Shown here: positions 7,948-64,000 of the stretch, in pieces
How positions within the stretch are numbered: the first letter of the stretch is position 1
Layout of the letters: each line of letters opens with the position of its first letter
NCBI GenBank assembly: GCA_031372005.1
Contig: JANMKK010000023.1
Location: 28,724-92,723, forward strand
Reading direction: 5' to 3'
DNA length: 64,000 nucleotides
Origin: Rubrivivax sp.
GTDB taxonomy: Bacteria; Pseudomonadota; Gammaproteobacteria; Burkholderiales; Burkholderiaceae_C
Made by a program: the position numbers and the translations under genes
Notes under the pieces: model-generated
Told to the model about the DNA's origin: nothing
The model's input: only the letters and a program-made list of their open reading frames with translations
Databases searched by the model: none

Positions 7948-9125
7948 CGGCCCTCTGCCTGGCCTGCGCGGCGCACGCACAGTCCAGCGGCGGCGGCTAC
8001 CTGGCGCTGGCGCACGCCGCAGCCATCGAGGGCGGTGGCACGGTGCTCAACCGCGCCGAGGCCGGCCTGCATGGGCGAGCCGCCTTCGGGGCCTGCCAGG
8101 CCAGGTTCGACGTGCGGATCCGGCACGACGAGGCGCTGTCCACCCCACCCGGCACCGAAGGCGAACTGCGCGAAGCCGCCGTGCTTTGCCGGCTGGACCG
8201 CTGGTTGCTTCAGGCCGGTCGCCAATCGGTGGTCTGGGGCAAAGCAGACGGACTGGCCGTGCTGGACGCCGTGCATCCGTTCGACCGCCGCGAATTCCCG
8301 TTTGCCGATCGCGAGCAGGCGCGGTTGGCGCTGACGATATTGCGCGCCGAGGTCCGCGTCACCGACAACGACACGGTGCAGGGACTGTGGATTCCGGAAC
8401 GTCGCGAAGAACTTCTGCCCGCCCCGGGTGGTCGCTTCGCCGCCGGCTGGGGTGCTCAGGCAGCGTTGGCCAACACGGCGGCTGCCGCCAGCGGCCGGTG
8501 GCGGCAGCCGCAATGGGGCGGCCAATGGGAACACGGCGACCCGGGCCTGAGCTGGACCCTGAACGCCCTGCAGCGCTGGGCACCGCAGCCCGGCTGGGAT
8601 GTCGACCTGTCCACCGGCCGTGTCCAGCGCCGTGCATACCGGCAGACCATCATCGGCGGCAGCTTTGAATTCGAGGCGGGTGCGGGTTGGGTGCTGCGCG
8701 GCGAGGGGGCCACGACAGACCGCCAGGCGCTGCCTGTGGTGCCGGGTGCCGGGGTACCGCGCTTCAGCCGGCAGCGGAGCACCATCGTCGGCGCGGACCA
8801 CCTGTGGGACGACACGCTGCTGGCTGCCCAGTGGATGCGAACGGCGTGGCGGGGGCCCCTGCCCGAAGGCACCCGTCCTGCGCAGGACTGGCTGACACTG
8901 GCCGCCAGCCGCAGCGCCTGGCAGGACCGGCTGCACCTCAAGGCCTCGAGCGCATGGGACCTGACGCGCCGTGCGCGGTGGCTGCGTGCAGAGGCCAGGC
9001 TGCAGCGGTCCGCCACGTGGTCCGCAGCGTTCACCGTCGACGCCGTGCGCGGCCGCCCGGATTCCGTGCTCGGCGCCTTCCAGCCCGCGAGCCGGGTGGG
9101 GCTGAGCGTGCGGGCGGATTGGTAG
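7917..9125 (+). CDS. Secreted outer-membrane beta-barrel-like protein (DUF1302-like)
   Basis: Signal peptide (AALCLACAAHA/QS), GRQSVVWGKADG motif, alternating beta-strand pattern and C-terminal Trp. Confidence 0.6.
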   Translation: MLPSRAAATVAALCLACAAHAQSSGGGYLALAHAAAIEGGGTVLNRAEAGLHGRAAFGACQARFDVRIRHDEALSTPPGTEGELREAAVLCRLDRWLLQAGRQSVVWGKADGLAVLDAVHPFDRREFPFADREQARLALTILRAEVRVTDNDTVQGLWIPERREELLPAPGGRFAAGWGAQAALANTAAAASGRWRQPQWGGQWEHGDPGLSWTLNALQRWAPQPGWDVDLSTGRVQRRAYRQTIIGGSFEFEAGAGWVLRGEGATTDRQALPVVPGAGVPRFSRQRSTIVGADHLWDDTLLAAQWMRTAWRGPLPEGTRPAQDWLTLAASRSAWQDRLHLKASSAWDLTRRARWLRAEARLQRSATWSAAFTVDAVRGRPDSVLGAFQPASRVGLSVRADW

Positions 9126-18968: not shown

Positions 18969-20261
18969 TCAGGGCTGCTGCAGGCACAGCGCGGAGTTGA
19001 CGCCGCCGAAGCCGAAGCTCAGCGTCAACGCGTTGCGCACGCTGCAGCGCACGGCGCCGTCGCGTACCCAGTTCAGTGACGGGTCGATCGGCGCATGCAG
19101 ATTGCGCGTCGGGTGCAGCAGGCCGGCGCGCATCTGCAACAGCGTTGCGATGATCTCGACGGCACCCGCCGCGCTGAGCCCATGGCCGATGATCGACTTG
19201 GTGGCGTTCAGCCGTGCGCCGCGCAGGCCGCTGCGGCGGATGGCCTCGAGTTCGATCTCGTCGCCCAGTGGCGACGCGGTGCCGTGCGTGTTGACGTAGT
19301 CGATCTCGCCGGCAGCCATGCCGGAGCGCTGGAGCGCGCCGGCGATGGCACGCACTTCGCCTGGCAGCGACGGGTCGGGATTGCGGTGGCCGTCCATCGC
19401 GACAGCCCCGCCTGCGCAGGCCGCATAGGGGGCCACGCCGGCGCGCCGGATGCCGTCGGCGCGTTCGACCACGATCGCACCGCAGGCTTCGCCGAAGATG
19501 AATCCGTCGTGATCGGCGTCGAACGGGCGGCAGGCCGAAGCGGGATCGGCAGCATGGCGCTCGCTGCCCATGGCGCCGATCGAGCGGAAAGCCTGCAGCT
19601 CCCAGTACGACAGGTCCATCAGCGCGCCCATGGCGATGCAGACATCGACCTGGCCGCTGGACACCGCCTGCATGGCGTGCAGCACGGCGACCTGGCCGCT
19701 GGCCGACGCGCTGCCGATCGTGCAGGCGAACCCGCAGATGCCGAACAGTTCGGTCAGCAAACCGCACGCGTCGCTGTCCATGAACGCATGCGCGTAGCCT
19801 GGGCGCAGGTAGTAGGCGCGGTCGCGGTAGGCCTGATGCGTCAGGGTCAGCTCCCGCTGCTGGAAGTTGGAGCCGCCGATGACGAGGCCGATGCGCTCGG
19901 GCTCAACGTCGTGCAACCGCGCCTCGTCCCACGCTTCGGCCAGCGCCGCCAGCGCCACGCGGCTGGACCACGCGATGCCGCTCGGCACGCGCGCGTTCAG
20001 TGGCTCGGGCAGTTGCACCGATCCGATCTCGGCGCCGATGAAGGGCGGTGGCGCTTGCGCACCGCCCACAGCCGGAAGCTGCCGCCCTTCACGCCGCAGC
20101 GGGCCGAACACGTTGCGCGGCTGAAGCATCCCGTCCAGCAAGGCGGCCTTGCCCTGGCCCAAGGCTGTCACGACGCCCAGCCCGGTGACCACCACGCGCG
20201 CGCTGCCCGTGGCAATGCCCGGGAACGGCACCGCACGCACCACCGATGCGAGGTCAGGCAA
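18969..20261 (-). CDS. Decarboxylating stand-alone KS of the beta-branching cassette (PksF-like, Cys-to-Ser); start uncertain (TTG 20261; ORF open to 20330)
   Basis: TIGSASASGQVA (Ser in place of Cys), ALMDLSYWE, HGTAS and KSIIGHGLSAAG. Confidence 0.9.
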   Translation of the reverse strand: MPDLASVVRAVPFPGIATGSARVVVTGLGVVTALGQGKAALLDGMLQPRNVFGPLRREGRQLPAVGGAQAPPPFIGAEIGSVQLPEPLNARVPSGIAWSSRVALAALAEAWDEARLHDVEPERIGLVIGGSNFQQRELTLTHQAYRDRAYYLRPGYAHAFMDSDACGLLTELFGICGFACTIGSASASGQVAVLHAMQAVSSGQVDVCIAMGALMDLSYWELQAFRSIGAMGSERHAADPASACRPFDADHDGFIFGEACGAIVVERADGIRRAGVAPYAACAGGAVAMDGHRNPDPSLPGEVRAIAGALQRSGMAAGEIDYVNTHGTASPLGDEIELEAIRRSGLRGARLNATKSIIGHGLSAAGAVEIIATLLQMRAGLLHPTRNLHAPIDPSLNWVRDGAVRCSVRNALTLSFGFGGVNSALCLQQP

Positions 20262-20520
20262 GCTCGCCTGCCTTGCGCGCGGCCACGAACCCGGCCAACC
20301 GCTCGGCCAGTTCACCGACGTTGCCTGCACCGGCCAGCTCGACCAGCGGCACCTGCAGCGACAGCGTCTCCAGGGTGAGCATCACGATCTCGGCGCGGTC
20401 GATCGAGTTGGCGCCGAGGTCGCGCAACGCATCGTCGAAGCGGAATGTATGAGCCGTGAGGTCGGGGCGGATGTCCCTGGTGTGGCGCACGATGATGTCG
20501 AAAATGGCTTGTGGGTTCAT
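20254..20520 (-). CDS. Beta-branching donor ACP (AcpK-like)
   Basis: LGANSIDRAEIV, the GANS motif typical of donor ACPs; adjacent to the KS(S) gene. Confidence 0.9.
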   Translation of the reverse strand: MNPQAIFDIIVRHTRDIRPDLTAHTFRFDDALRDLGANSIDRAEIVMLTLETLSLQVPLVELAGAGNVGELAERLAGFVAARKAGELA

Positions 20521-49500: not shown

Positions 49501-52500
49501 TTGATCACGTGCTGTGCAAAGAAGAACTCTTCGCCGTCGAATCGGGAGCTGTAGCGGTGGCCGGAGAACAGCGTGGAGGTGTTCCGGTGCAGGAGCGGAT
49601 GCAAGCGCGGATGCAACAGCGGGGGCAGAACCGGCGGCACACGCTCGCCAGCGACCGCGACCGCGACCGCGACCGCGGCCGCGTCCGCGTCCGCAGCACG
49701 GAGCGCTGCGGGCTTGTCGGCCTCTGCGGGCAGCCAGTACGATTTCAGCTCGAAGGGATAGCCTGGCAGGCTGACGCGACGTGGCCGCGCGGCCACGTCT
49801 TGCGCGTACAGGCGCCGCCAATCGAAAGCCAGTCCACGCACCCACAGCCCGAGCAGGTCGTCGAAGTGCCCCAAGGTGGCTGATCGCGCCAGCGCCTGCT
49901 GGCGCTCTTCGCTGCCGGCGGCCGTCGCGACTGTCTCGTCGCCGCGCTGCACGCGGCCATGGAAGACGGGGACTGCCGGTCCGGGCGCAGCGGCCGCAGC
50001 GCCCTGGGCTTCGGGCAACGGGCCCTGCAGGGCCGTGCGCAACGCGTCGAGCGACGAGACAACAAGCGCGAGCCGCTGTTCCATGGGCTCGCGGCCGGTC
50101 TGCAGCGTGTATGCCAGGTCTGCCAGCGCCAGCCCGGCCTGTTCGGGCTGCGCCAGGAAGTCGCGCAGGCGCTGCACGCAAGCCTCCAGCCGCGGCGCGC
50201 TGCGCGCTGACAGCAAGATCGCCACCGGGCCGTCGCTCTGCGGGCGCGCTGAGCGGTGCTCGAGATGGTCCTCGATCACCACGTGCGCATTGGTGCCGCT
50301 GAAGCCGAAGGAGTTGATCGCCGCACGCCGCTGCTGGCCTTGCGGGACGGTCCAGGGCCGGCAGGCATCGAGCACGTAGAACGGCGAGCGTGCGAGTGCG
50401 ATGTGCTCGTTGATCTGCTCGAAGTGGATTGTCGGCGGCAGCACGCGGTGCTTCAGCGCCAGCAGCAGCTTGATGACGCCGGCGATGCCGGCGGCTGCAA
50501 GCAGGTGGCCGATGTTGCTCTTGACCGAGCCGATCGCGCAGTAGCCGGTCTCGGAAGTGAACTTGCCGAAGGCGGTCGTGAGCCCCTCGATCTCGATCGG
50601 GTCGCCGAGCCGCGTGCCAGTGCCATGCGCCTCGATCAGCTGGATCTGGCGCGGGTCGATGCCGAAACTGCAGTAGGTGTGCTGCTGCAACCGTGCCTGC
50701 GAAAGCGGGTTGGGGGCGGTGATGCCGTTGGTCTTGCCGTCCTGGTTGACGCCCCAGCCGCTGATGACGCCGATGACCGCGTCACCATCGCGTTCTGCGT
50801 CCTCCAGACGCTTGAGCAGCACGGCGCCGACGCCTTCACCCGGCACGAAGCCGTTGGCGCGCTGGTCGAAGGTGTAGCAGCGGCCGTCCGGCGACAGCAT
50901 GCCCGCCTTGCTGGTCATGATGTGCATGTCCGGTCCGGCGAGCACATTGACGCCGCCGGCCAGCGCCATGTCGCTGCTCCGCAGCACCAGGCTGTCGCAG
51001 GCCGCCGCCAACGCCACCAGCGATGAAGAGCAGGCAGTGTCAATGGACAGGCACGGCCCCTGCAAGTCAAGCAGGTAAGCGATCTTGGCGGCCAGAATCG
51101 AACTCGCGCGGCCCATGAAGTTCTGCGGGTTCAGGTCCTCGCGCCTGATTGACTGGCCGTAGTCGCCCGCGGTGCAGCCGACGAACACGCCGCAGCGACT
51201 GCCCGCGAGCGCCGCGGCGTTGTAGCCAGCGTCTTCGAAGCAATGCCATGCCGTCTGCAGGAACAGACGCTGCTGCGGGTCGGTCCACTCGGCCTCGCGC
51301 GGGGAGATGTTGAAGAACAGCGGGTCGAACTGCGCCACGCCTTCCAGCACGCCCATCCACTTTGAGTAGCTCTTGCCAGGCACGTCCGGATCGGCGTCGT
51401 AGTGGCGCTTGAGGTCCCAGCGTTCGGGACCGATTTCGCTGATGCAGTCGCGCCCCTGGGCCAGGTTGCGCCAGAACTCGTCGACGTCGCGCGCCTTCGG
51501 AAACTGGCCCGCCATGCCGATCACCGCGATCCGCGCCAGGCCCGGGCCCTGCGGGGCAGCGGGCGCGGCAGCGGACGGGGCAGCGGGCGGGGCAGCGGAC
51601 TCTTGCAGCGGCCGGATGACGCACACGGTCCTTGGCGCTGCAGGCTCAGGCCGCGCCGGTTCGGGGGCGGGGGCGGGGGCGCGAGGCAGCGCCTTTTCGG
51701 CCAGCCGCTGCCCGTCATCGAACACCCCCGCCTGCAGTCCCGCCTGCAACACGTGCTGCGCAAACGCCTCCAGCGTCGGGTGCCCGTAGACCGTGGTGGC
51801 ACCCATCGTCAGGCCGTAGCGCTCGTTGATCCTGCGCACCCAGTTGACGCCGGTGATCGAATCCAGCCCGAGGTCCACGAACTTCTGGTCGTCGTCGATC
51901 GCCGAGGGGTCCAGGTACAGCTCCTCGGCCAGCAGCGCACGCAGCGCGCCCCGCACTTCGTCGGCCAGGCCGGCGCTGCCGTGCTGAACCGCTGCGGTCG
52001 CGGTGGCAACCGGCGCGACGGTGACGGCAGCGGCCGCGCCGTCGCCGAAGCCTTCGTTGAAGTGGCGCTGGATCCGCGCCAGCACCTCCGGGTTGCCGAC
52101 GAAGCAGGCCTCGTGCATGGCCCGCTCGCGCGCCAGGGTCTGCTGCAGGCGGCTTCGGATGCGCGCCATGCCGGCACGCTTCATCGCTTCAAGCTCTTCG
52201 CGGGGCAGCGCCGCAAGACGGCTGGCCAGGCGCAATGCCAGCGGCTGCACCTCGGCAGCGGGTACCACCGCCAGCCGCGGGTCGCGCCGCTTCAGGTCCA
52301 GGCCGGTGAGGTCCTGCGCGCCGCAGAGGATCTCGCGCGCGAGATCGGGGCCCAGGTGCTCTTGAAAGGCCAGCGTCGACCCCGCGCCCGGGGTGAAGCC
52401 GTACTTCATGTATGGGCTGGTGTAGGTGTGCTTTTCGCTGAAGATCACCAGGTCGCAGAACATCCCGAGCGACCAGCCCGCGCCGATGCCGTGCCCCTGC

Positions 52501-53954
52501 ATGGCCGCGATCACCGGCACGGCCGCTTCTGCGGCCAGGCTGTAGATGCCGATGTCGGTGAAGCGTGCGCGCCCGTCCTGGATCGCCAGCAGGCTGTCCT
52601 TGGTGCCGCCGCAGGAGAAGTAGTGCTCATAGCCGGTCAGCACCACGGCCTTGCAGTGCGGGCGGCGGGCAATCTCGGCGAAGGCCCGGGCGATGCCGTC
52701 GACCAACTCCGGCGTGAAGGTGTTCTTGCCGCGGCGGTCGCGCAGCGTGACAACGGCCACGCCGTTTGCATGCTCGTCCAGCCCAACCGCCTCGCAGCCC
52801 AGATCCACTGCCCGGGCCGCACCGGATCGAGCGCCAGCGCCTTCGCCTTCGCCGGCGAGCACCGCGTCCAGGTGGCGCTGCCAGGGCGCGGAGGGCCGCA
52901 TCGGCTGCACCGGTGGCACCGGCGCGGGCCCTGCGACCGCCATGCCGTCACGCCCGTCTACCACCAGGCGCATGGCCTGCGCCGCCATGTCTTGCGCCAG
53001 GTGCTGCTTGAGCAAGGCCAGCGCCTGTCGAGGCGCCTGGGCCAGCAGGCGGGCCCATTGCAGGGCGTGGGTTTCGACCTCCACCGCCGGCACGACCGCA
53101 ACGCCGATCCCGGCGTCGCGCAGCCGACGGCCTTGCACCGGCCGCCCCGATTTCCACAGCGCGGCAACGTCGGCGTGCGGCCAGCGGGCTCCGAGCAGCG
53201 GCTGCCAGCCACTCGGGTCCTGCGCCAGACCCTGCGCCAGACCTTGCGCCAGGCCGCCATAGCTGCCGGATTCGCTGCACACCACAAAGTCACAGCAGGC
53301 CGCAAAAAGCCAGGCCAGTCCTTCCGCCTGCGGCGCAGCGGCCACCACCGGCAACGTGCAGTCCGTTGCCAGCCGGCAGGCCGCGCCCTCGAAGAATGCA
53401 AGCTGCTCGGCCGGCGTCTGTCCGGCAGGCAACAGGCCGTGCACGCCTGCATCCGCAGCCCGCAGCAGAACCACCCGGGCCAGCGGCTGCTCGGTGATGC
53501 GCTGCAACGCGTCGCCCAGGCCCTGCACCAGCGCCGGCGTCCAGCGACGTGCGCCGGACAGGATGAGTTCAAACACGCCGTCGCCACGGTCGTCGATGCG
53601 CAACTCGCACGACTCGGCCTGCGCTGCCGCAGCGCCTTGTGGCGCCGGCGCGGCTGCCTGCGGGTGGTCCGGCACCGCCAGCACGAACTGCGGTCGCGGC
53701 AAGGTGGGTGCCGGCTGCAGCGGACGCAGCGCCGCCGGATCGACGAGCCGGATGTCCGACGGCTTCGCTTCTGCGCGCCCGGGCGCGTGCGGCGTCTCGT
53801 TACCTGCGGCGTCACCTGCGGCGTTACCGGCCGCGTCACCTGCCGCATTGCGCTGCCGTAGCAACAGCAGCAGCACCCGCACCTGCTCGCGCGTGAGTTT
53901 GTCCGCGCGGTAGTCGGCAATGATGGCTTCGAGCCCTTCGAGTCTGGTACTCAC
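34518..53954 (-). CDS. trans-AT PKS B (about 6480 aa): ECH*-ECH-ACP(beta)-KS3-DH-KR-ACP-KS4-KR-ACP-KS5(KS0)-DH-ACP-KS6-KR-ACP-KS7
   Basis: GTG 53954 follows an aagggag RBS. Degenerate ECH (about 53610-52980) and PksI-like ECH (SCGGTK, YMKYGFTPG). ACP GLDSITGVNW. KS3, KS4 and KS6 have intact C/H/H. KS5 has NGSGS instead of HGTGT. The DH reads HKAYGQRLLPGLAY. KS7 reads DTACAST/HGTAN/GH. KRs have catalytic Tyr. Confidence 0.93.
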   Translation of the reverse strand: MSTRLEGLEAIIADYRADKLTREQVRVLLLLLRQRNAAGDAAGNAAGDAAGNETPHAPGRAEAKPSDIRLVDPAALRPLQPAPTLPRPQFVLAVPDHPQAAAPAPQGAAAAQAESCELRIDDRGDGVFELILSGARRWTPALVQGLGDALQRITEQPLARVVLLRAADAGVHGLLPAGQTPAEQLAFFEGAACRLATDCTLPVVAAAPQAEGLAWLFAACCDFVVCSESGSYGGLAQGLAQGLAQDPSGWQPLLGARWPHADVAALWKSGRPVQGRRLRDAGIGVAVVPAVEVETHALQWARLLAQAPRQALALLKQHLAQDMAAQAMRLVVDGRDGMAVAGPAPVPPVQPMRPSAPWQRHLDAVLAGEGEGAGARSGAARAVDLGCEAVGLDEHANGVAVVTLRDRRGKNTFTPELVDGIARAFAEIARRPHCKAVVLTGYEHYFSCGGTKDSLLAIQDGRARFTDIGIYSLAAEAAVPVIAAMQGHGIGAGWSLGMFCDLVIFSEKHTYTSPYMKYGFTPGAGSTLAFQEHLGPDLAREILCGAQDLTGLDLKRRDPRLAVVPAAEVQPLALRLASRLAALPREELEAMKRAGMARIRSRLQQTLARERAMHEACFVGNPEVLARIQRHFNEGFGDGAAAAVTVAPVATATAAVQHGSAGLADEVRGALRALLAEELYLDPSAIDDDQKFVDLGLDSITGVNWVRRINERYGLTMGATTVYGHPTLEAFAQHVLQAGLQAGVFDDGQRLAEKALPRAPAPAPEPARPEPAAPRTVCVIRPLQESAAPPAAPSAAAPAAPQGPGLARIAVIGMAGQFPKARDVDEFWRNLAQGRDCISEIGPERWDLKRHYDADPDVPGKSYSKWMGVLEGVAQFDPLFFNISPREAEWTDPQQRLFLQTAWHCFEDAGYNAAALAGSRCGVFVGCTAGDYGQSIRREDLNPQNFMGRASSILAAKIAYLLDLQGPCLSIDTACSSSLVALAAACDSLVLRSSDMALAGGVNVLAGPDMHIMTSKAGMLSPDGRCYTFDQRANGFVPGEGVGAVLLKRLEDAERDGDAVIGVISGWGVNQDGKTNGITAPNPLSQARLQQHTYCSFGIDPRQIQLIEAHGTGTRLGDPIEIEGLTTAFGKFTSETGYCAIGSVKSNIGHLLAAAGIAGVIKLLLALKHRVLPPTIHFEQINEHIALARSPFYVLDACRPWTVPQGQQRRAAINSFGFSGTNAHVVIEDHLEHRSARPQSDGPVAILLSARSAPRLEACVQRLRDFLAQPEQAGLALADLAYTLQTGREPMEQRLALVVSSLDALRTALQGPLPEAQGAAAAAPGPAVPVFHGRVQRGDETVATAAGSEERQQALARSATLGHFDDLLGLWVRGLAFDWRRLYAQDVAARPRRVSLPGYPFELKSYWLPAEADKPAALRAADADAAAVAVAVAVAGERVPPVLPPLLHPRLHPLLHRNTSTLFSGHRYSSRFDGEEFFFAQHVIKGHKVLPGVGHLEMVRAAVKEACGTHADTSSLLIRNVVWMRPIACPDNGDAATVHISLTIEDDNEIAFKIYSGGEQGEHGMVVHSQGLVLLHAPASIPTLDLAALLRECPNGGLDAHRYFAAMKDRGADLGRGFRGIDRYHLGADAAGVPQVLTHITIPEGLSDMPDRFVLHPTPMDAAVHTAPPLMADWQQVERAPLVLPFVLDELEVLGSCQEAMWALARPAQGASGRRSSNSSSAPKYDIDLCDEAGMICVRFKGFAFRVADKALTVDGAARAQPLPLPVEEPAPTLALESLLLRASWRERPVGDAAPESFAQRVVALCGAGSVKALAGLLPSVQLVGLAPAAAYGPAPAAFEALAAEAFGLVRRLLDERAAAGARGRTLLQFVVPRGSWSALSGLVKTLHAEHPKMRGQVIEVDPHEPADALARQIEQCSAVPDDVHVRYRAGRREVAGWEEIEPDPSPAPLPWKERGVYLITGGAGALGLLLSREILQRVGAVTLVLTGRSPLNERIAASQRGLQAAARQPASVRVDYHALDVTLAGEVESLLQDIRRQHGRLDGVLHCAGVVRDNYLRRKSVTELAEVLPPKVSGVANLIAATQGLDLDFLVLFSSIASGIGNAGQADYAMANAYMDACADACADACADADGIRPLSINWPLWQDGGMAIDAATARRMRDQTGLVPLRTQTGLQALYRALVLQLPQLMVLEGDAGAVRHWLADTGTVRRPQADGGALTLPLPPILETTDMPQILKSDADPAERLRSVLDTLKPVVAGILKLSLDEIDIDKELSSYGFDSITLTELTNVLNKQHRIPSSRALNPTVFFEHPTLRSFAGLLAEEFSEIGAPVPPPAAPAAPVALPKPAARALPAAASRLPAAAAARPAAPTAPADLREPIAVVGMSARLPMARDIHEYWANLVDGRDCISEIPADRWDWRAIFGSPADPGNKTDVKWGGFIDSVAEFDPLFFGISPRETLYMDPMQRLLMQGIWHAVEDAGYSARSLAGTRTGIFVGTSVSEYGTLLTQANIPCDAFLPTGRSSSLGPNRMSYLLDISGPSETVDTACSSSLVAIHRAIQAMRSGHCDMALVGGVNTLIGPDGHVSFRKAGMLSVDGRCKTFSAHADGYARGEGVGILFLKKLADAERDGDHIYGLVRGSGENHGGRANSLTAPNPKAQAELIHTVYTEAGIDPRSIGYIEAHGTGTALGDPVEVNGLKMAFKALYRASGDESVAAPHCGIGSAKSNMGHLELAAGVAGAIKVLLQLKHQTLAKNLHSEELNPFIQLQGSPFYVVNQTQPWPAIGDAEGQALPRRAGVSSFGFGGANAHVAFEEYRAAAADATGDATREAAATGTEHVFVLSAKNDARLKDAALQLLNAVREGRRHSAGGSVPRLSDADLPRMAYTLQIGRDAWDERLAIRAGSLQVLAERLAQFLADQSSPEVLRGRTARKDETLALFDARELHETVGRWIERGQLAKVLALWVKGADVDWRLLHAGRPLPRRISLPGYPFARDRHWPELVAAPGPVGHGAGGATSAGTAGNAGTAGTAATAATAPGTRTPVLLIKGWTAAAPAPSTTTATTPPGHSGDLPDALLLLADTATLPLARRLLDRCPRGRIVALDDETATAALWRELDTAPGAALPWSGCIDLVGCGTVRPSAASWLPLLQRLVARWMAAAGTPMLLGVTRGLESVHGGAVNTAGAERAGVYRMLQSEYPKLRSRHLDLDPAAGDEAALQHIAAEWQVPGDDAETCYRDNRRHVAVLQLQPPLAEPAPLAFAPDRVLWITGGTRGIGLLCAEHFVARHSVRKLVLCGRDALPPRAGWPALLSAGAAGDRALVRKIEAVQRLEGLGVQVETLALPLENADAVRVQVQRIGAALGRIGGLLHCAGSNDWNNPAFVRKPLAEIEKVLAPKVGGLDALLAAMQGEPLQFVVLFSSVSAIVPALGAGQSDYVAANAYMDSVAQARAGQMPIVSIQWPSWKDTGMGEATTRAYRQTGLLSLTDAEGLRLLDQVIGQRPGPVVLPALVADAAWQPQRLMLRAAAPAAPTATTATTATTATTVPAPAGRSEVVAWLTRLFSMELMLAPGSLDPEVPFTDYGVDSIMLAQILRRVDDALNAAGKAEALDPSVFYEHPTLNSFADWLGGTHAQALGRALAPAQAVVAVGSGVPAVAAATAPPSTPPSILPPMPPAPLTPQAAAGEAGAATLPGAGLDIAVVGLSCRFAGAPDLDAFWQLLSEGRSGIQAVPAERWGRATAFHAGLLDDVAHFDPGHFLIPDSDAAAMDPQALMLLEEGLRVFHHAGYEAREMKGSETGVFIGARSNHRPDDSTLAQARNPIVAVGQNYLAANLSQCFDLRGPSLVVDTACSSALVAMQMAVHALRAGQIGAALVGGISLLRSDEVHRLFERRKLLARAGEFHIFDRRAGGVVLGEGVGMVLLKTVQQALRDGDRIHAVIRGLAVNNDGRTAGPATPNLQAQKAVMQRALHDSGATPEQVRYIHVNGSGSEVTDLLELKALQAVYRPADAAPVPCELGSTEPNIGHPLAAKGMAAFIQAASMLSHRMSVPFLSGQEPMQHFDIGASPFSFTREASPWAEGRALAAVNCFADGGTNVHVILEAWQSAAQDAPRRRPLALPALKRRHIGAGAAAQGALQAAAEVAAAVVSGPLPAAWPRVSSAASAPYLLSAEHPVLRDHKAYGQRLLPGLAYIDLLFQHFQGLGFDHGQLELRNLSIYQPLTVDADQSVLLDIRCTESAGPVWQIELLGREQRGPALSEPKRYAVAEMRQAGPVAFGATIDVAAVRHQAQRSLDLDTLYGQCRLQRLDHAGVIKAEGQVHEAEDATCIEIALGAQALPGAGSHLFHPTLIDGSSVGAQRLFAAFFEGESRLILPLFYESFRASAALRERCITRIPAASVRRRNELLYMNLEFFDATTGRQVAELRNYACKLVRDASAINGSSDGAAVPRAASAAVPLAAATVATSALPAAAAAGAAPAAEGDCSGAENFLAELIAKRIGTPADQIDIGLGYYELGLDSARLLDLVGALEKQVGSPLAPTLLFEYTTIAELAAYLTQTYPAAWPQQTAAAAAAAATAAPVAPAVAAAPAEQAPTRPDTGVPLQMSAHRAVSTDIAIIGMAGRYPGARTLDEFWRNLQDGKDCITEVPASRWAADRLQGVKSPSGKSMSRWGGFIDDPDCFDAQFFRISPFEAKLLDPQQRQFLEVCWETIEDAGYTPKTLATPRGRNQRRDVGVYVGVMHNDYAILTAEAIARGTPTPVSLNYAQIANRVSYFCNFHGPSMAIDTVCSSSLIAVHLALQSVRSGECEVALAGGVNLSIHPLKYLTYGLMDMHASDGRCRTFGNGGDGYVSAEGIGAVLLKPLSAAVRDGDQVYAVIKGSTTNHVGTVSGLTVPSPVAQADMIEQCLDQTGIHPRTISYVEAHGTGTSLGDPIEIQGLVRAFGHQTADKQYCAIGSVKSNIGHAESAAGISGLTKVALQLRHKTLVPSLHSRELNTHLDFANTPFYVQQVKAPWPQPLVPEHGQGQQQPRRAALSSFGASGSNAHVIVEEYLSAQPAVPDAPRRAVVVPLSAKNPDRLAAYAKRLLDHLRAGTALPALPDLAGTLQRGREAMNERLALVASDAAELAAALQSFLDGDLAAGAACYRGSLKPGKKAATVAEADAAVRRWTAEGAARPLAEAWVQGALIDWDALHQATFAGRPLWRVSLPTYPFAKERHWLDLPTPQPPARKPGTGTSPAWVAPPEARAPIYFTPRWQPQPLDSAMNEGPAAPAAKTTVFLIGADHALAARLLQDQVADHAAAWPVTDDAAGDLVQHALQLLRHCKDPERVRRGTPERLLVVAPYRGSDYPHRGLMGALRTISLELPFIETRLVLDAALASGDTAVLLQHLAAERQAQDGCTEVTYPPQGPRQVLAQVVLDAPTAANPAAQRPLAGLVRERGVYLITGGLGGLGQLFTRHLGRGTSARFVLTGRSLLDGRRRAQLAALVADGVNAEYLPCDTSDWKDVRRLVAHIVVEHGALHGVVHSAGVLADNFISRKTESEVAAVITAKAQAIVHLDEATRDQALDFFVAFSSVAALGNPGQFDYATANAFLGAFAGWRAEQVARGKRQGRSLAIDWPLWRDGGMSVQPAYEQFMRETLGIVPLGEATGVQAFAAALASPEHQFGVFEGDRQKVARLLARPARPAAARAASTRTGASTASSALRAEQRDAVESVARAAVAEALGMAPETVDLQVDFADYGMDSIGATKVANAINQRLGLEYTGAVFLELNTAGKLIEHLQALAPTEPPAAEPTPTPTPTPTPSPSPSPSPSLSPSLSPTPTPSPTQRVAIIGYDARLPGAPDVPTYWRKLLSKEIATEDVPPSEWHARGVACGRDASFPAMRHAALLQGIDQFDADFWDIADGDARAMDPQERLLLRSIWHCVEQAGVSMQTLTQRRVGLFLALDAVDYATLPRQHGDAAAGAPILTSAGMIANRISYHCDFKGPSEAVDTACASTFVALRRAAQAIASGECETAIVGGAKILLDPAGFADRDAGEILTRTPRMFPFDAQAEGYVRGEGVGCVLLKALDQAERDGDTVHAVIAGIGITHNGRRALSQVAPSVEGQRQAMREAYRCAGFGPEAVNYIEAHGTANSFSDASELAAFKLHFKESMSAEHYRQHRCAVSTVKANIGHLEGASGMASLIKAVLALREGTIAPIATWSKLHPSILLAGSPFHFPTEATPWERLPTAGGAPPPPRRVGLHSIGIGGVNAHVLLEEHPTAPRLAAPAGAGGPQLVLLSARSRAALDAHFKRWHAHLAACVADERATLDELAAASRTGRDAMPYRAAFVADSIPVLMDLLARGADALATGPVESPGLFAAVGHAARKPKAATHAAPAAGPASGAGAGAGTGAGAGAGAGGMAARARAWLAGGAIDASWGSDAAPRRVAIPTYPFQERRVWWEPPGLPARAEGAAKQPADPFDALFYETFVQPAERRTAPQVGTP
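36502..36600. repeat. 6-bp tandem repeats encoding a Pro-Thr/Pro-Ser linker between ACP and KS7
   Basis: ggcgat, ggcgtt and ggtgtc arrays; protein EPTPTPTPTPSPSPSPSPSLSPSLSPTPTPSPT. Confidence 0.85.
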
Positions 53955-54006
53955 CCGTACTCCCTTGTGATTCGGCGGCTGGCCTTGATGCGCTGGCGGC
54001 CGCGCG

Positions 54007-60941: not shown

Positions 60942-62054
60942 TCAGGCGGGCGCCAGTTCCTCAAGGTCGAAATAGCCGTTGTAGCCATCGAGATACACCG
61001 CCGCGCGGTGCTGGAACAGCAGCACTGCGGGCGTGCGCGTCGCGACCTGCTCACCCGGCATCAGCGCTGATTTCACGCGCGTGCCCACCGGGTGCTGACG
61101 GTTCCATTGCTGGACGCGCTCGCGCGCACTTTGGGCCGGCGCGACAGCAGCGGGGGCACCGGCTGCACCCGCAGTCGGGGCGGTGCTGCGCAAGGCCGCG
61201 TGGCCGGCTCGGATGGCGGGCAGCATCTTGCTCAGCACGTCGCCATGGCCCGCCTCGACAAAGTCCATCGCCGCGCCGGCCTGCTCGGCGGCGTCGAGCA
61301 GGTAGCCGATGCTTTCGGCCCAGCGCACCGAGGACGTGATCTGCAGCGACAGGTTGGTCGCCACCTCACCTGGCGCATAGGGCCTGGCGCCGACGTTGGA
61401 AAGGACCGGGATTGCCGGCTCGGAGAATTTGAAACCCTGCATGAAGGCTTCGAATTGCTCGCGCGCCGGTGCCATGAAGCGCGAATGGAAGGCGCCGCTG
61501 GTGTTCAACGGGATGTACTGGCTCGGCGGACCGAAGTGCTTCTGCGCTTCTGCGATCTGGTGGCGGGCCCCCGAGATCACGATCTGCTTGGGTGTATTGA
61601 AGTTTGCGATGTCGATCTGGTCCAGGCCGTTGTCGTCGAGCACCGCGCGCAGGGTGTCTGCCGGTGTGTTCAGCAGCGCGGCCATACCGCCTTCTGCTGC
61701 CTGCCCCATCAGTTCGGCACGGCGCCGCACCAGTTGCAGGCCGGTCTCGAAGTCGAAGCAGCCGGCCAGCAGCAGCGCGTTGAATTCGCCCAGGCTGTGG
61801 CCTGCGACGAAATCAGGCCGGCCGTGCTGCGCGATGCGGTCCAGGCCGGACAGCGCGTTGACGACGAAGATCGCCGGCTGCGTGAACTGGGTGCGGTGCA
61901 GTTCGCGTCGGGGATCGTCGAGGCACAGCTCCGCAATCGAGTAGCCGAGGATGCGATCGGCGCCCGCCACCCACTCCGGGTACTTGTCGAAGAGTGGCCG
62001 GCCGCCCATGCCCTTGGCCTGGGAACCCTGGCCCGGAAAGAGAAACGTCTTCAT
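60942..62054 (-). CDS. trans-acting malonyl-CoA:ACP acyltransferase with a small C-terminal extra domain
   Basis: MKTFLFPGQGSQ, TQFTQPA, GHSLGE, RR and GAFHS. The C-terminal tail WNRQHPVG...HRAAVYLDGYNGYFDL follows an Ala/Pro linker. Confidence 0.93.
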   Translation of the reverse strand: MKTFLFPGQGSQAKGMGGRPLFDKYPEWVAGADRILGYSIAELCLDDPRRELHRTQFTQPAIFVVNALSGLDRIAQHGRPDFVAGHSLGEFNALLLAGCFDFETGLQLVRRRAELMGQAAEGGMAALLNTPADTLRAVLDDNGLDQIDIANFNTPKQIVISGARHQIAEAQKHFGPPSQYIPLNTSGAFHSRFMAPAREQFEAFMQGFKFSEPAIPVLSNVGARPYAPGEVATNLSLQITSSVRWAESIGYLLDAAEQAGAAMDFVEAGHGDVLSKMLPAIRAGHAALRSTAPTAGAAGAPAAVAPAQSARERVQQWNRQHPVGTRVKSALMPGEQVATRTPAVLLFQHRAAVYLDGYNGYFDLEELAPA

Positions 62055-62338
62055 GTGGACTCCGGATCGGTATCGAGTGGCTGCAAGCCCGGCAGGCTGA
62101 AAGTGGCCCGCTCTTCGCACAGCACCAGGTCGCGGGCAGCGGCGAAGCCGACGCCACCGGCGTTGGCCTTGCCGCGCACGATCTTTGCCCACGACTCGCA
62201 GGCGCGCAGCACGGCCGTGCAATCTTCGAGCAGCCGCCGGTTGATGGTGTTGCACGCATCCGGCCGGTGGGTCTGCAAGCAGCCGATCACGCGGTCCTGC
62301 CGGACACGGACGGTCTCGCAAGCGCTCAGCTGGCCCAC
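62051..62338 (-). pseudogene. In-frame, internally deleted remnant of the stand-alone enoyl-CoA hydratase ECH1 (PksH-like), about 92-95 aa
   Basis: Retains ETVRVR...HRPDACNTINRRLLEDC and VRGKANAGGVGF...D...ATFSL. It lacks the VVLEG...FCxGADF oxyanion segment, the catalytic Glu after FSL, and the whole C-terminal half. Confidence 0.82.
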
Positions 62339-63585
62339 TCGTACTCCCGGTGGAATTCCTTGATCTGTTTCAGGAACAGCGTCTGCGTCGGGTGCGCCCG
62401 CCGCGCAGGCTCGCAGATGGCGGGATCGGGCCGGGCGTTGCGCGTGCCGAACCTGACGCTGCCGCTGCCGCGCAGCACGTCTTCGTATTCCTGCACCGAC
62501 ATCCGGTGCCGGCGGTCCAGCGCATCCTTGAGGTGCATGCTGCGCACCTTCGCCTGCCCCTGGCGTGTGACGACGCCGCTGAAGAATTCCGAGCAGCAGC
62601 CCGAGCCGTACGAGAAGCAACCCACCCGTGCGGGTTCATCAAAGTTGCCGTTGTCGATCGTGCTGAGCAGCGACAGCAGTGCCGCGGCACCCATGGTGTT
62701 GCCCACGCGCATGCAGTACGCCAGGCCGGGCGCCACGCGCCGCTGGAAGTCGGCCTCGATCGCGTCGGTGCCGGCGCGCGCGAGCTTGCGCATCAAGCTG
62801 CGGTGCGCGCCCTTGATCATGCCGCCGAAAGGCGTGTGGAACGCCAGGAAGCCGAACGAGCGCGCGTAGTCGGCCTCGGGAACCCGCTTCTTGTATTCAA
62901 GGAATGACTTCTCGCTGCAATCCAGGTAGGACAGCAGCGAAAGATCGGCGTCCCCCGCTTCGCTGTCGGCGACCGGCCGGCAGGTGTCCATCACCTCGTA
63001 GCCGTAGTAGCCACTGGCGCCAACGTCGATGCGGAACACCTCCGGCTTCTCGCTGATCAGCATCGCAACCGCACCGGCACCGCCGCTGGGCTCAGCGAAC
63101 GACCACTCCTGCTGGCGGGCATCGCCGTTCTCGTCCATCAGGAAGCGGCTGATGTCGGTGGCCACGACCAGCGCCTTTGCACCCGGCGAAGTCTGAGAAA
63201 GGATGAAGTTGACCGCCATCTGAAGGCCCGCAGTGCCGGAGTAGCAGGCGTTCTTCAGCTCGAACAGCCGGCAGTTGCGATTCAGGCCCAGCACCTGGTG
63301 CACGTAAGTGCTCATCGACTTGCCGAAGTCGAAGGACGACTCCGTGCAGGTGATCACCATCTCGATGCGATCCTTCTCGTCGGCGCTCAGGGCGTCAATC
63401 AGCGGCCTGGCGGCGTTGACGGCGAAGGTCACCGGGTCTTCGAACGGCAGGGCGACGGTCTTCTCGCGCATCAGCAAGTTGTCGAAGCGGGTCAGGTCGA
63501 GCTGGCGGTGCCGCGCCAGCTCTCGCACGTCAAGGCACGCGGTACCCGCAAAGGCATTCATGGACTCGATACCGACCTGGATCAT
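62326..63585 (-). CDS. HMG-CoA synthase-like beta-branching enzyme (HMGS/HCS, PksG-like)
   Basis: EDPVTFAVNAA, ESSFDFGK, ELKNACYSGT (Cys), AFHTPFGGM and FSYGSGCCSEFFSG; ATGA overlap with the upstream stop. Confidence 0.95.
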   Translation of the reverse strand: MIQVGIESMNAFAGTACLDVRELARHRQLDLTRFDNLLMREKTVALPFEDPVTFAVNAARPLIDALSADEKDRIEMVITCTESSFDFGKSMSTYVHQVLGLNRNCRLFELKNACYSGTAGLQMAVNFILSQTSPGAKALVVATDISRFLMDENGDARQQEWSFAEPSGGAGAVAMLISEKPEVFRIDVGASGYYGYEVMDTCRPVADSEAGDADLSLLSYLDCSEKSFLEYKKRVPEADYARSFGFLAFHTPFGGMIKGAHRSLMRKLARAGTDAIEADFQRRVAPGLAYCMRVGNTMGAAALLSLLSTIDNGNFDEPARVGCFSYGSGCCSEFFSGVVTRQGQAKVRSMHLKDALDRRHRMSVQEYEDVLRGSGSVRFGTRNARPDPAICEPARRAHPTQTLFLKQIKEFHREYEWAS

Positions 63586-64000
63586 CGGCACTCGCCCTGT
63601 GTCGCACTGTTTGAACTGCGCGTGCCGGAAATGCCCAGGGCCTCCAACTGGTGCGAGATCACCTTGCCCGCGTCGATCATGAGACGCTCGCCGATCTGGT
63701 CGACGTGGCGGGCTCTCCAGTTCTCCCAGGGCGTGCCCTGCACCCAGCGGTTGAAGGCGCCCAACGCCGGCCCGGTGTGGATCTGGTAGTCGACGCGATG
63801 CATCTGGTCGCCTGCGAAGGCCACACGCATCGAGTGCCCGAAGTACCAGCGGAACACCAGCGCCATCTTGTGCTTTCCGTTGCGTTCGGCTTTCTCGATC
63901 TCGCCGGGCTGGCCGCTGCTTTCGAAGTAGGTGCGGGTCTCAAGCCAGATCGACTCCAGCGACCTCTTGAAGTACTTCTCCTCGAGTTGCTCGCGCACGG
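63582..64000 (-). CDS. PfaD/PksE-type FMN-dependent trans-enoylreductase, C-terminal part (5' partial; may be an AT-ER fusion)
   Basis: KHKMALVFRWYFG, DYQIHTGPALGAFNRWVQGT and WRARHVDQIGERLM are characteristic of the PfaD-family C-terminus. Confidence 0.88.
   Translation of the reverse strand, partial: VREQLEEKYFKRSLESIWLETRTYFESSGQPGEIEKAERNGKHKMALVFRWYFGHSMRVAFAGDQMHRVDYQIHTGPALGAFNRWVQGTPWENWRARHVDQIGERLMIDAGKVISHQLEALGISGTRSSNSATQGECR

Follow-up and report, generated by a model that had tools for sequence, protein, structure and literature searches.

Cassettes for polyketide β-branching comprise five functions, namely a donor acyl carrier protein (ACP), a decarboxylating ketosynthase (KS0), a 3-hydroxy-3-methylglutaryl (HMG)-ACP synthase (HMGS), and two enzymes that act in turn on HMG-ACP, ECH1 for dehydration and ECH2 for decarboxylation. 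These enzymes can be shared. In myxovirescin biosynthesis, a single ECH1/ECH2 pair serves two HMGSs. For bongkrekic acid, one β-branching cassette serves two modules (PMC12560621). Moreover, ECH2 may be preceded by a truncated, inactive ECH domain; a discrete ECH1 then performs the dehydration, and this arrangement commonly goes with exomethylene branches (PMC9600693). Here, we analysed a 64,000-nt stretch of DNA from Rubrivivax sp. (assembly GCA_031372005.1, hereafter G000), referred to as the window, which corresponds to positions 28724-92723 of the 104-kb contig JANMKK010000023.1 (C105). G000 is a fragmented metagenome-assembled genome (MAG) of 465 contigs, 4.17 Mb and 92.6% completeness. 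A minus-strand operon of the window runs, in order, through a trans-acting enoyl reductase (trans-ER), HMGS, a 95-aa open reading frame (ORF), a trans-acting acyltransferase (AT) and three polyketide synthase (PKS) genes. We propose, with somewhat more confidence than doubt, that the 95-aa ORF is a catalytically dead, fixed relic of ECH1 and that dehydration would be supplied in trans by a spare ECH1 encoded elsewhere in the genome.

The ECH1 gene is reduced to a relic

The relic, its retained segments and the two genes that flank it are as follows.

62326..63591, minus strand: HMGS of PksG type, intact, with both Pfam HMGS domains; 86% identical to that of metagenome contig L131
62051..62338, minus strand: 95-aa relic of a free-standing PksH/CurE-type ECH1, with GTG start, TGA stop and a partial Pfam ECH_1 match
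62177..62338, minus strand: N-terminal retained segment (relic residues 1-54), whose first 13 nt overlap the HMGS C-terminus
62093..62176, minus strand: middle retained segment (residues 55-82, RGKANAGG...ATFSL), region of the second oxyanion loop, with a conserved Cys changed to Arg
62081..62092, minus strand: PGLQ, the ambiguous junction zone of deletion 2, in which the catalytic Glu of FSLSE is absent
62051..62080, minus strand: C-terminal retained tail PLDTDPEST plus stop, containing the AT Shine-Dalgarno sequence GGAG
60942..62054, minus strand: trans-acting AT of 370 aa, intact

The match of the relic to Pfam ECH_1 is partial (E=1e-8), the best stretch covering profile positions 95-126 of 251. 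Its closest full-length homologue is the 284-aa ECH1 of L131, to which it aligns with two in-frame gaps, so that the shortening by in-frame deletions recognised in the initial annotation holds. Deletion 1 takes away ~53 codons after codon 54, and the alignment to L131 confirms exactly the junction that had been placed at 62177-62179; deletion 2 takes away ~134 codons after FSL, with a breakpoint that is ambiguous within ~12 nt (62081-62092). The relic reads FSLPGLQ where full-length enzymes read FSLSELLFGL. The Glu after FSL, in a column that is at least 90% conserved in 63 homologues, is therefore lost, as had also been noticed. The first oxyanion-hole segment (VFCFGAD) is deleted and the second (NAGGxGF) is kept, and the whole C-terminal half of ECH1 is gone. 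A functional ECH1 has a full crotonase fold of ~250 aa, the catalytic Glu and both oxyanion segments; the relic has neither the fold nor the Glu, and one of the two segments. Judged from its sequence, it cannot be a working crotonase. Its ancestry is nevertheless that of ECH1, as it occupies the slot between HMGS and AT and is homologous to the syntenic ECH1s.

The nearest relatives of the HMGS (85-87% identical) are found on three metagenome contigs (the P0006 context, L131 and L132), all with the gene order ER-HMGS-ECH1-AT and an ECH1 of 284-285 aa. The order HMGS-ECH1-AT, as in L131 and the P0006 contig, is also found in L029, L031, L036 and L042. Given that the sister ECH1s are full length and carry the same 13-nt (HMGS) and 4-nt (AT) overlaps as the relic, the latter arose via two in-frame internal deletions. 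The relic tail PLDTDPEST corresponds to PLDTDWEKR in L131, which has the ATGA overlap too, and in relatives a short GTG/CGTG direct repeat borders the junction of deletion 1. Two deletions of microhomology type have eliminated the motif of the first oxyanion hole, the Glu of the active site and the C-terminal half of the enzyme; both are multiples of three, whether by chance or by selection, and for this reason the ancestral start and stop still share one frame. The start codon is ATG in every syntenic relative and GTG in the relic; within the HMGS frame, the substitution is silent (GAA to GAG). Mini-ECH1 proteins of similar length and sequence were not found outside this population's own cluster. 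The gap between HMGS and AT in L087, and likewise in L092, contains a small ACP and no ECH1 remnant. On the P0006 contig, an integrase/transposase gene (rve, HTH_28; 241-1074) lies immediately upstream of the ER-HMGS-ECH1-AT operon, which is consistent with mobility of the cluster.

Fixation and divergence of the relic

The distribution of G000 over 465 contigs could favour the view that the short gene is an artefact of the assembly or binning of a fragmented MAG. However, at least 23 contigs (34 index blocks) encode exactly this 95-aa product. They belong to ENA and Logan assemblies that were made independently, with different assemblers and from different samples, and a full-length allele did not turn up at the locus in any of them. 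All ten contexts shown for the identical HMGS have the 95-aa gene. When ten of the loci that encode the relic are compared with the window over 6.3 kb, only 27 sites vary, and the relic itself is invariant. The recurrence of the same gene in independent assemblies excludes an assembly error, which had been named as a way in which the initial annotation might fail, as the source of the short gene, and the probability that we leave to an artefact of any kind is negligible. The dead ECH1 relic is fixed in the population.

We counted lineage-specific amino acid replacements at sites on which four outgroups concur. There are 7 of them in the 75 codons of the relic vs 12 in 537 for HMGS plus AT (Fisher p=0.005), and the sister lineage has no such excess (4/75 vs 25/537). 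Conserved residues of the relic are affected: ANNTI has C for N, AACD has R for C, and another C has become G. Overall, identity to L131 is 72% for the relic, 86% for HMGS and 83.5% for AT, with pairwise omega values of 0.39 (over as few as 75 codons), 0.17 and 0.075, respectively. From this small sample, the data suggest that the retained segments of the relic are under relaxed constraint.

A second cassette with an intact ECH1

Inside the window no other intact ECH1 exists, and to that extent the initial annotation was right. On C105, the relic is the sole ECH_1 match outside PKS2, and no intact ECH1 lies upstream of the window, where the trans-ER is followed by a sulfatase, an AMP-ligase and an IclR regulator. 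Genome-wide, the statement does not hold. A second HMGS (HMGS2, 64% identical to the first) is present on contig C159, followed by an intact ECH1 and then by a cut ECH2. This spare ECH1 (C159:9796-10566) is of PksH type, with 256-259 aa, scores 171 bits across the ECH_1 profile, and keeps 91 of 100 conserved positions together with the FSLSELLFGL motif. C159 abuts the start of C105 with a gap of 164 nt, which places the intact ECH1 on the same chromosome and strand as the relic, ~101 kb further downstream. Moreover, relic and spare ECH1 occur on one contig in ERZ27314311 (119,039 bp) and in ERZ27315211 (113,835 bp). An intact ECH1 just outside the window had been named as a finding that would overturn the initial proposal; a linked copy at ~101 kb comes near to this without being quite that. 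The spare ECH1 is indexed in 34 blocks, equal to the relic, and is intact in every context seen. Supply in trans by another ECH, one of the options raised earlier, is favoured by this linked gene, the supply itself being inferred.

The surroundings of the spare ECH1 vary between samples. The ECH2 of the second cassette is full length (249 aa) in ERZ27315211, where an AT and a KS come after it. Its counterpart in G000 and ERZ27314311 breaks off near residue 141 (C159:10934) and toxin-antitoxin genes come next; beyond the cut are found DUF4062, a DUF6036 nucleotidyltransferase, a Phd antitoxin and a CoA-transferase fragment, and many contigs terminate exactly at the cut point. In two independent samples (ERZ27315212 and ERZ28573531), a 1-nt deletion in HMGS2 (L138 and L139, ~9117) leaves ORFs of 124 and 295 aa, and the ECH1 beside the frameshifted HMGS2 is still intact. 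The 76-aa ORF between the cupin gene and HMGS2 (L133 8404-8634; C159 ~8190-8420) resembles, by eye, the C-terminal fragment of an IS4/IS5-type transposase, which hints that a mobile element joined HMGS2-ECH1-ECH2 to the upstream genes. The whole locus (C159 1002-10984) comprises genes for a fatty-acyl-AMP ligase, a C-like protein, an ACP, a true (Cys) KS, a metal hydrolase, a haem-oxygenase-like protein, a cupin, HMGS2, ECH1 and ECH2. Positions 1-9000 of C105 hold PabB-like and class IV aminotransferase genes (PABA-type), an MMPL transporter and an aminotransferase/AMP-ligase fusion.

The embedded ECHa-ECH2 module

The N-terminus of PKS2 consists of a docking region, a degenerate ECH-like domain (ECHa), an intact ECH2 and then an ACP with the Trp flag of β-branching.

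52989..53609, minus strand: degenerate ECH-like domain ECHa at the PKS2 N-terminus, with 60 of 85 conserved ECH1 positions altered
52050..52760, minus strand: embedded ECH2 (decarboxylase), intact, with the Lys of KNTF and the His of ERAMH present
51831..51881, minus strand: serine motif (DSITGVNW) of the ACP with the β-branching Trp flag, the sole such ACP in the assembly line

We found the degenerate ECHa directly upstream of ECH2 and of the Trp-flagged ACP, which is the arrangement of the inactive ECHa-ECH2 didomain. In a search of 400 genomes of the order, the didomain gave matches in three genomes only, G000 included; the matches outside G000 are ~48% identical and cover the ECH2 part alone. 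Two Duganella MAGs (G042 and G044; loci L109 and L110) possess a collinear module with an equally degenerate ECHa, and have a full-length free-standing ECH1 beside HMGS. In a third genome (G043), the ECH2 part lies on a cut contig. A GLAQ tandem repeat (three units, 53220-53255) is inserted in ECHa and is absent from L109 and L110. As for the gene itself, the listed ATG of PKS2 (54413) would overlap PKS1 by ~400 nt, and the start is more likely the GTG near 53960, just before the docking-like segment.

It could be argued that ECHa or another cis domain, e.g., a PKS dehydratase, performs the dehydration, which would make the free-standing ECH1 dispensable. ECHa does adjoin ECH2 and is ECH1-derived, its AACCDFVVC aligning with AAACDLVLC. 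Yet the initial annotation had already judged this first embedded ECH to be degenerate, and it is: beyond the altered 60 of 85 conserved positions, it has neither the Glu nor the GG loop, it carries the repeat insertion, and domains of this kind are regarded as inactive (PMC9600693). Since ECHa is equally degenerate in relatives where the free-standing ECH1 persists, it is no replacement for the lost enzyme, and we hold dehydration in cis to be highly improbable.

A changed product has also to be weighed. If no ECH1 acted, the branch would halt at the HMG stage as a β-hydroxy-β-carboxymethyl group, possibly lactonising. The cluster's own ECH1 is dead, ECHa has no catalytic residues, and the PKS is maintained, so that some product is made; each of these points is compatible with such an arrest. 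However, ECH2 is as conserved as in relatives that keep ECH1. Measured against a consensus of collected homologues, which are mostly free-standing, the ECH2 of the window shows 28 departures vs 28-35 in those relatives, and it has the same subfamily signature. Likewise, the KS that comes next has an N-terminus closely resembling that of the relatives and collinear with it, and the genome does offer an intact ECH1. The suggestion made in the initial annotation that the branch may stop at the HMG stage finds no positive support here, and we consider it unlikely. To our knowledge, there is no precedent for a branch arrested at this stage.

Maintenance of the assembly line

Besides the genes already described, the same operon holds an ACP-flavoenzyme, the donor ACP, a KS with a Cys-to-Ser change, a hydrolase, transporters, a second AT and a phosphopantetheinyl transferase (PPTase). 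The gene start of the trans-ER lies just beyond the window edge, and the PKS genes, as listed ORFs, have 2302, 6631 and 3707 codons. The trans-acting AT has a C-terminal extension of ~80 aa past its Pfam AT domain (60942-61200), which is conserved at related HMGS-ECH1-AT loci (tblastn matches span residues 1-370). Two further components of the cassette are located as follows.

20254..20520, minus strand: free-standing donor ACP of the HMGS cassette, 88 aa, ACP-like, with LGANSIDR
18969..20330, minus strand: free-standing KS with active-site Cys changed to Ser (decarboxylating KS0 of the cassette)

The donor ACP resembles the small ACPs that adjoin HMGS in L087 and L092. Donor ACP, KS0, HMGS and ECH2 are thus present in the cluster and ECH1 is a relic, which leaves the cassette with four of its five functions.

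The loss of ECH1 might be the first visible lesion of a cluster that is silent or starting to decay, as the initial annotation had also envisaged. The second cassette is eroding (truncated ECH2, HMGS2 frameshift in some samples, putative insertion sequence remnant), and a search of 40 relatives from the genus and order recovered neither HMGS copy. Against decay, the PKS frames (37.9 kb; 12,640 codons) contain no stop and no frameshift, although the relic has gained a ~4-fold excess of replacements. This excess corresponds to roughly 0.03 neutral changes per site since inactivation; in our simulation, a neutral divergence of 0.01 per site gave a mean of 10 stops (minimum 3) in 37.9 kb. Given that none is observed despite the time that the relic has had to drift, the PKS is still under selection. 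Moreover, the omega of HMGS is 0.17, and intact genes are present for the donor ACP, KS0, the PPTase and both ATs. With 37.9 kb of intact PKS frames, a decaying cluster is unlikely, and our analysis shows instead that the cluster is otherwise complete and selectively maintained, and that the pathway is not dead.

The relic and translation of the AT gene

The relic GTG lies 13 nt before the end of the HMGS gene, whose stop codon is at 62328..62326, and its TGA (62053..62051) overlaps the AT start ATG (62054..62052) as ATGA. The initial annotation had rightly noted that both overlaps are kept, and had proposed on this basis that the relic is a translational coupler. In such a scheme, selection would keep the relic open and in frame, coupling the translation of HMGS to that of AT. 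Neither deletion disturbs the frame, the ancestral overlaps persist at start and stop, and the relic's Shine-Dalgarno sequence (GGGAG) and the ATGA junction are retained. However, two in-frame deletions are expected by chance with a probability of ~1/9 (0.11), and at 65-70% GC a stretch of this length is often open, whichever frame is read. Furthermore, the start codon has been weakened from ATG to GTG, AT carries its own well-spaced GGAG, and RNA folding around the AT start revealed no unusual structure (z=+0.88). In any case, the coding sequence of HMGS and the initiation region of AT already constrain the relic at its two ends. The preserved overlaps stand as an observation, and the coupling drawn from them we regard as doubtful, although it is the most serious of the alternatives considered. 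A wider claim, that the relic is selected as a translated spacer setting AT dosage and/or that no ECH1 serves the line, giving an HMG-type or lactonised branch, seems to us unlikely. We know of no description of an HMG-type branch (β-hydroxy-β-carboxymethyl or lactonised) for HMGS cassettes.

Proposed course of events and its implications

The lost ECH1 is most likely a dead redundant gene rather than a sign of new chemistry. We suppose that the redundancy of two ECH1 genes let one of them decay, and that the ends of the relic survive mainly as parts of the coding and initiation regions of neighbouring genes. Dehydration of HMG-ACP would most likely come from the PksH-type ECH1 of the second cassette acting in trans; the embedded ECH2 would then decarboxylate as in the relatives, probably giving a branch of the exomethylene type.

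Several observations weigh against this proposal. The intactness of the spare ECH1 comes from an exact-sequence look-up, which is blind to broken alleles and hence subject to ascertainment bias, and this enzyme is only ~47-57% identical to ECH1s of the syntenic type and might not recognise the ACP of PKS2. The sister lineages that keep ECH1 may or may not carry the second cassette too, the samples being without overlap. In addition, the ECH2 of the window is without a close sister sequence, and a recent relaxation there is possible. A disproof of trans supply would turn the cluster into a candidate for new β-branch chemistry.

Genome mining that considered one cluster or contig by itself would record a "missing ECH1" and, from this, predict an unusual branch at the HMG stage. 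This prediction is probably wrong here because a spare ECH1 is encoded in the next cassette, on another contig of the MAG. The locus also offers a clean natural example of the decay of a tailoring gene within a tightly overlapping operon, in which only those deletions survive that spare the neighbours' coding and initiation sequences. Taken together, the two neighbouring β-branching cassettes suggest an erosion towards a shared minimal enzyme set.

Comparison with known systems

With the PksH/CurE-type ECH1s of the crotonase superfamily, the relic shares its Pfam ECH_1 ancestry, the NAGGVGF loop, the FSL motif and the position after HMGS, but only 95 of ~284 residues are left. As in bacterial operons with stop/start coupling of the ATGA type, it keeps the 13-nt overlap with HMGS and the ATGA overlap with AT, like its full-length ancestors; unlike in such operons, AT has its own Shine-Dalgarno sequence and the relic start is the weaker GTG.

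The module in PKS2 has the same inactive ECHa, ECH2 and Trp-flagged ACP as LasH/LasO of lasonolide and the PedI/OnnB family (PMC9600693, PMC6855096). In these systems the discrete ECH1 partner is normally present, whereas it is destroyed in this cluster. As for enzyme sharing of the kind found with myxovirescin and bongkrekic acid, the proposal here is likewise that a single ECH1 works in more than one HMGS or ACP context; the difference is that the putative donor belongs to a separate neighbouring cassette ~101 kb away, and that the sharing is inferred. Overall, the locus is a new instance of known things, namely a pseudogenised tailoring gene, the ECHa-ECH2 architecture and shared β-branch enzymes.

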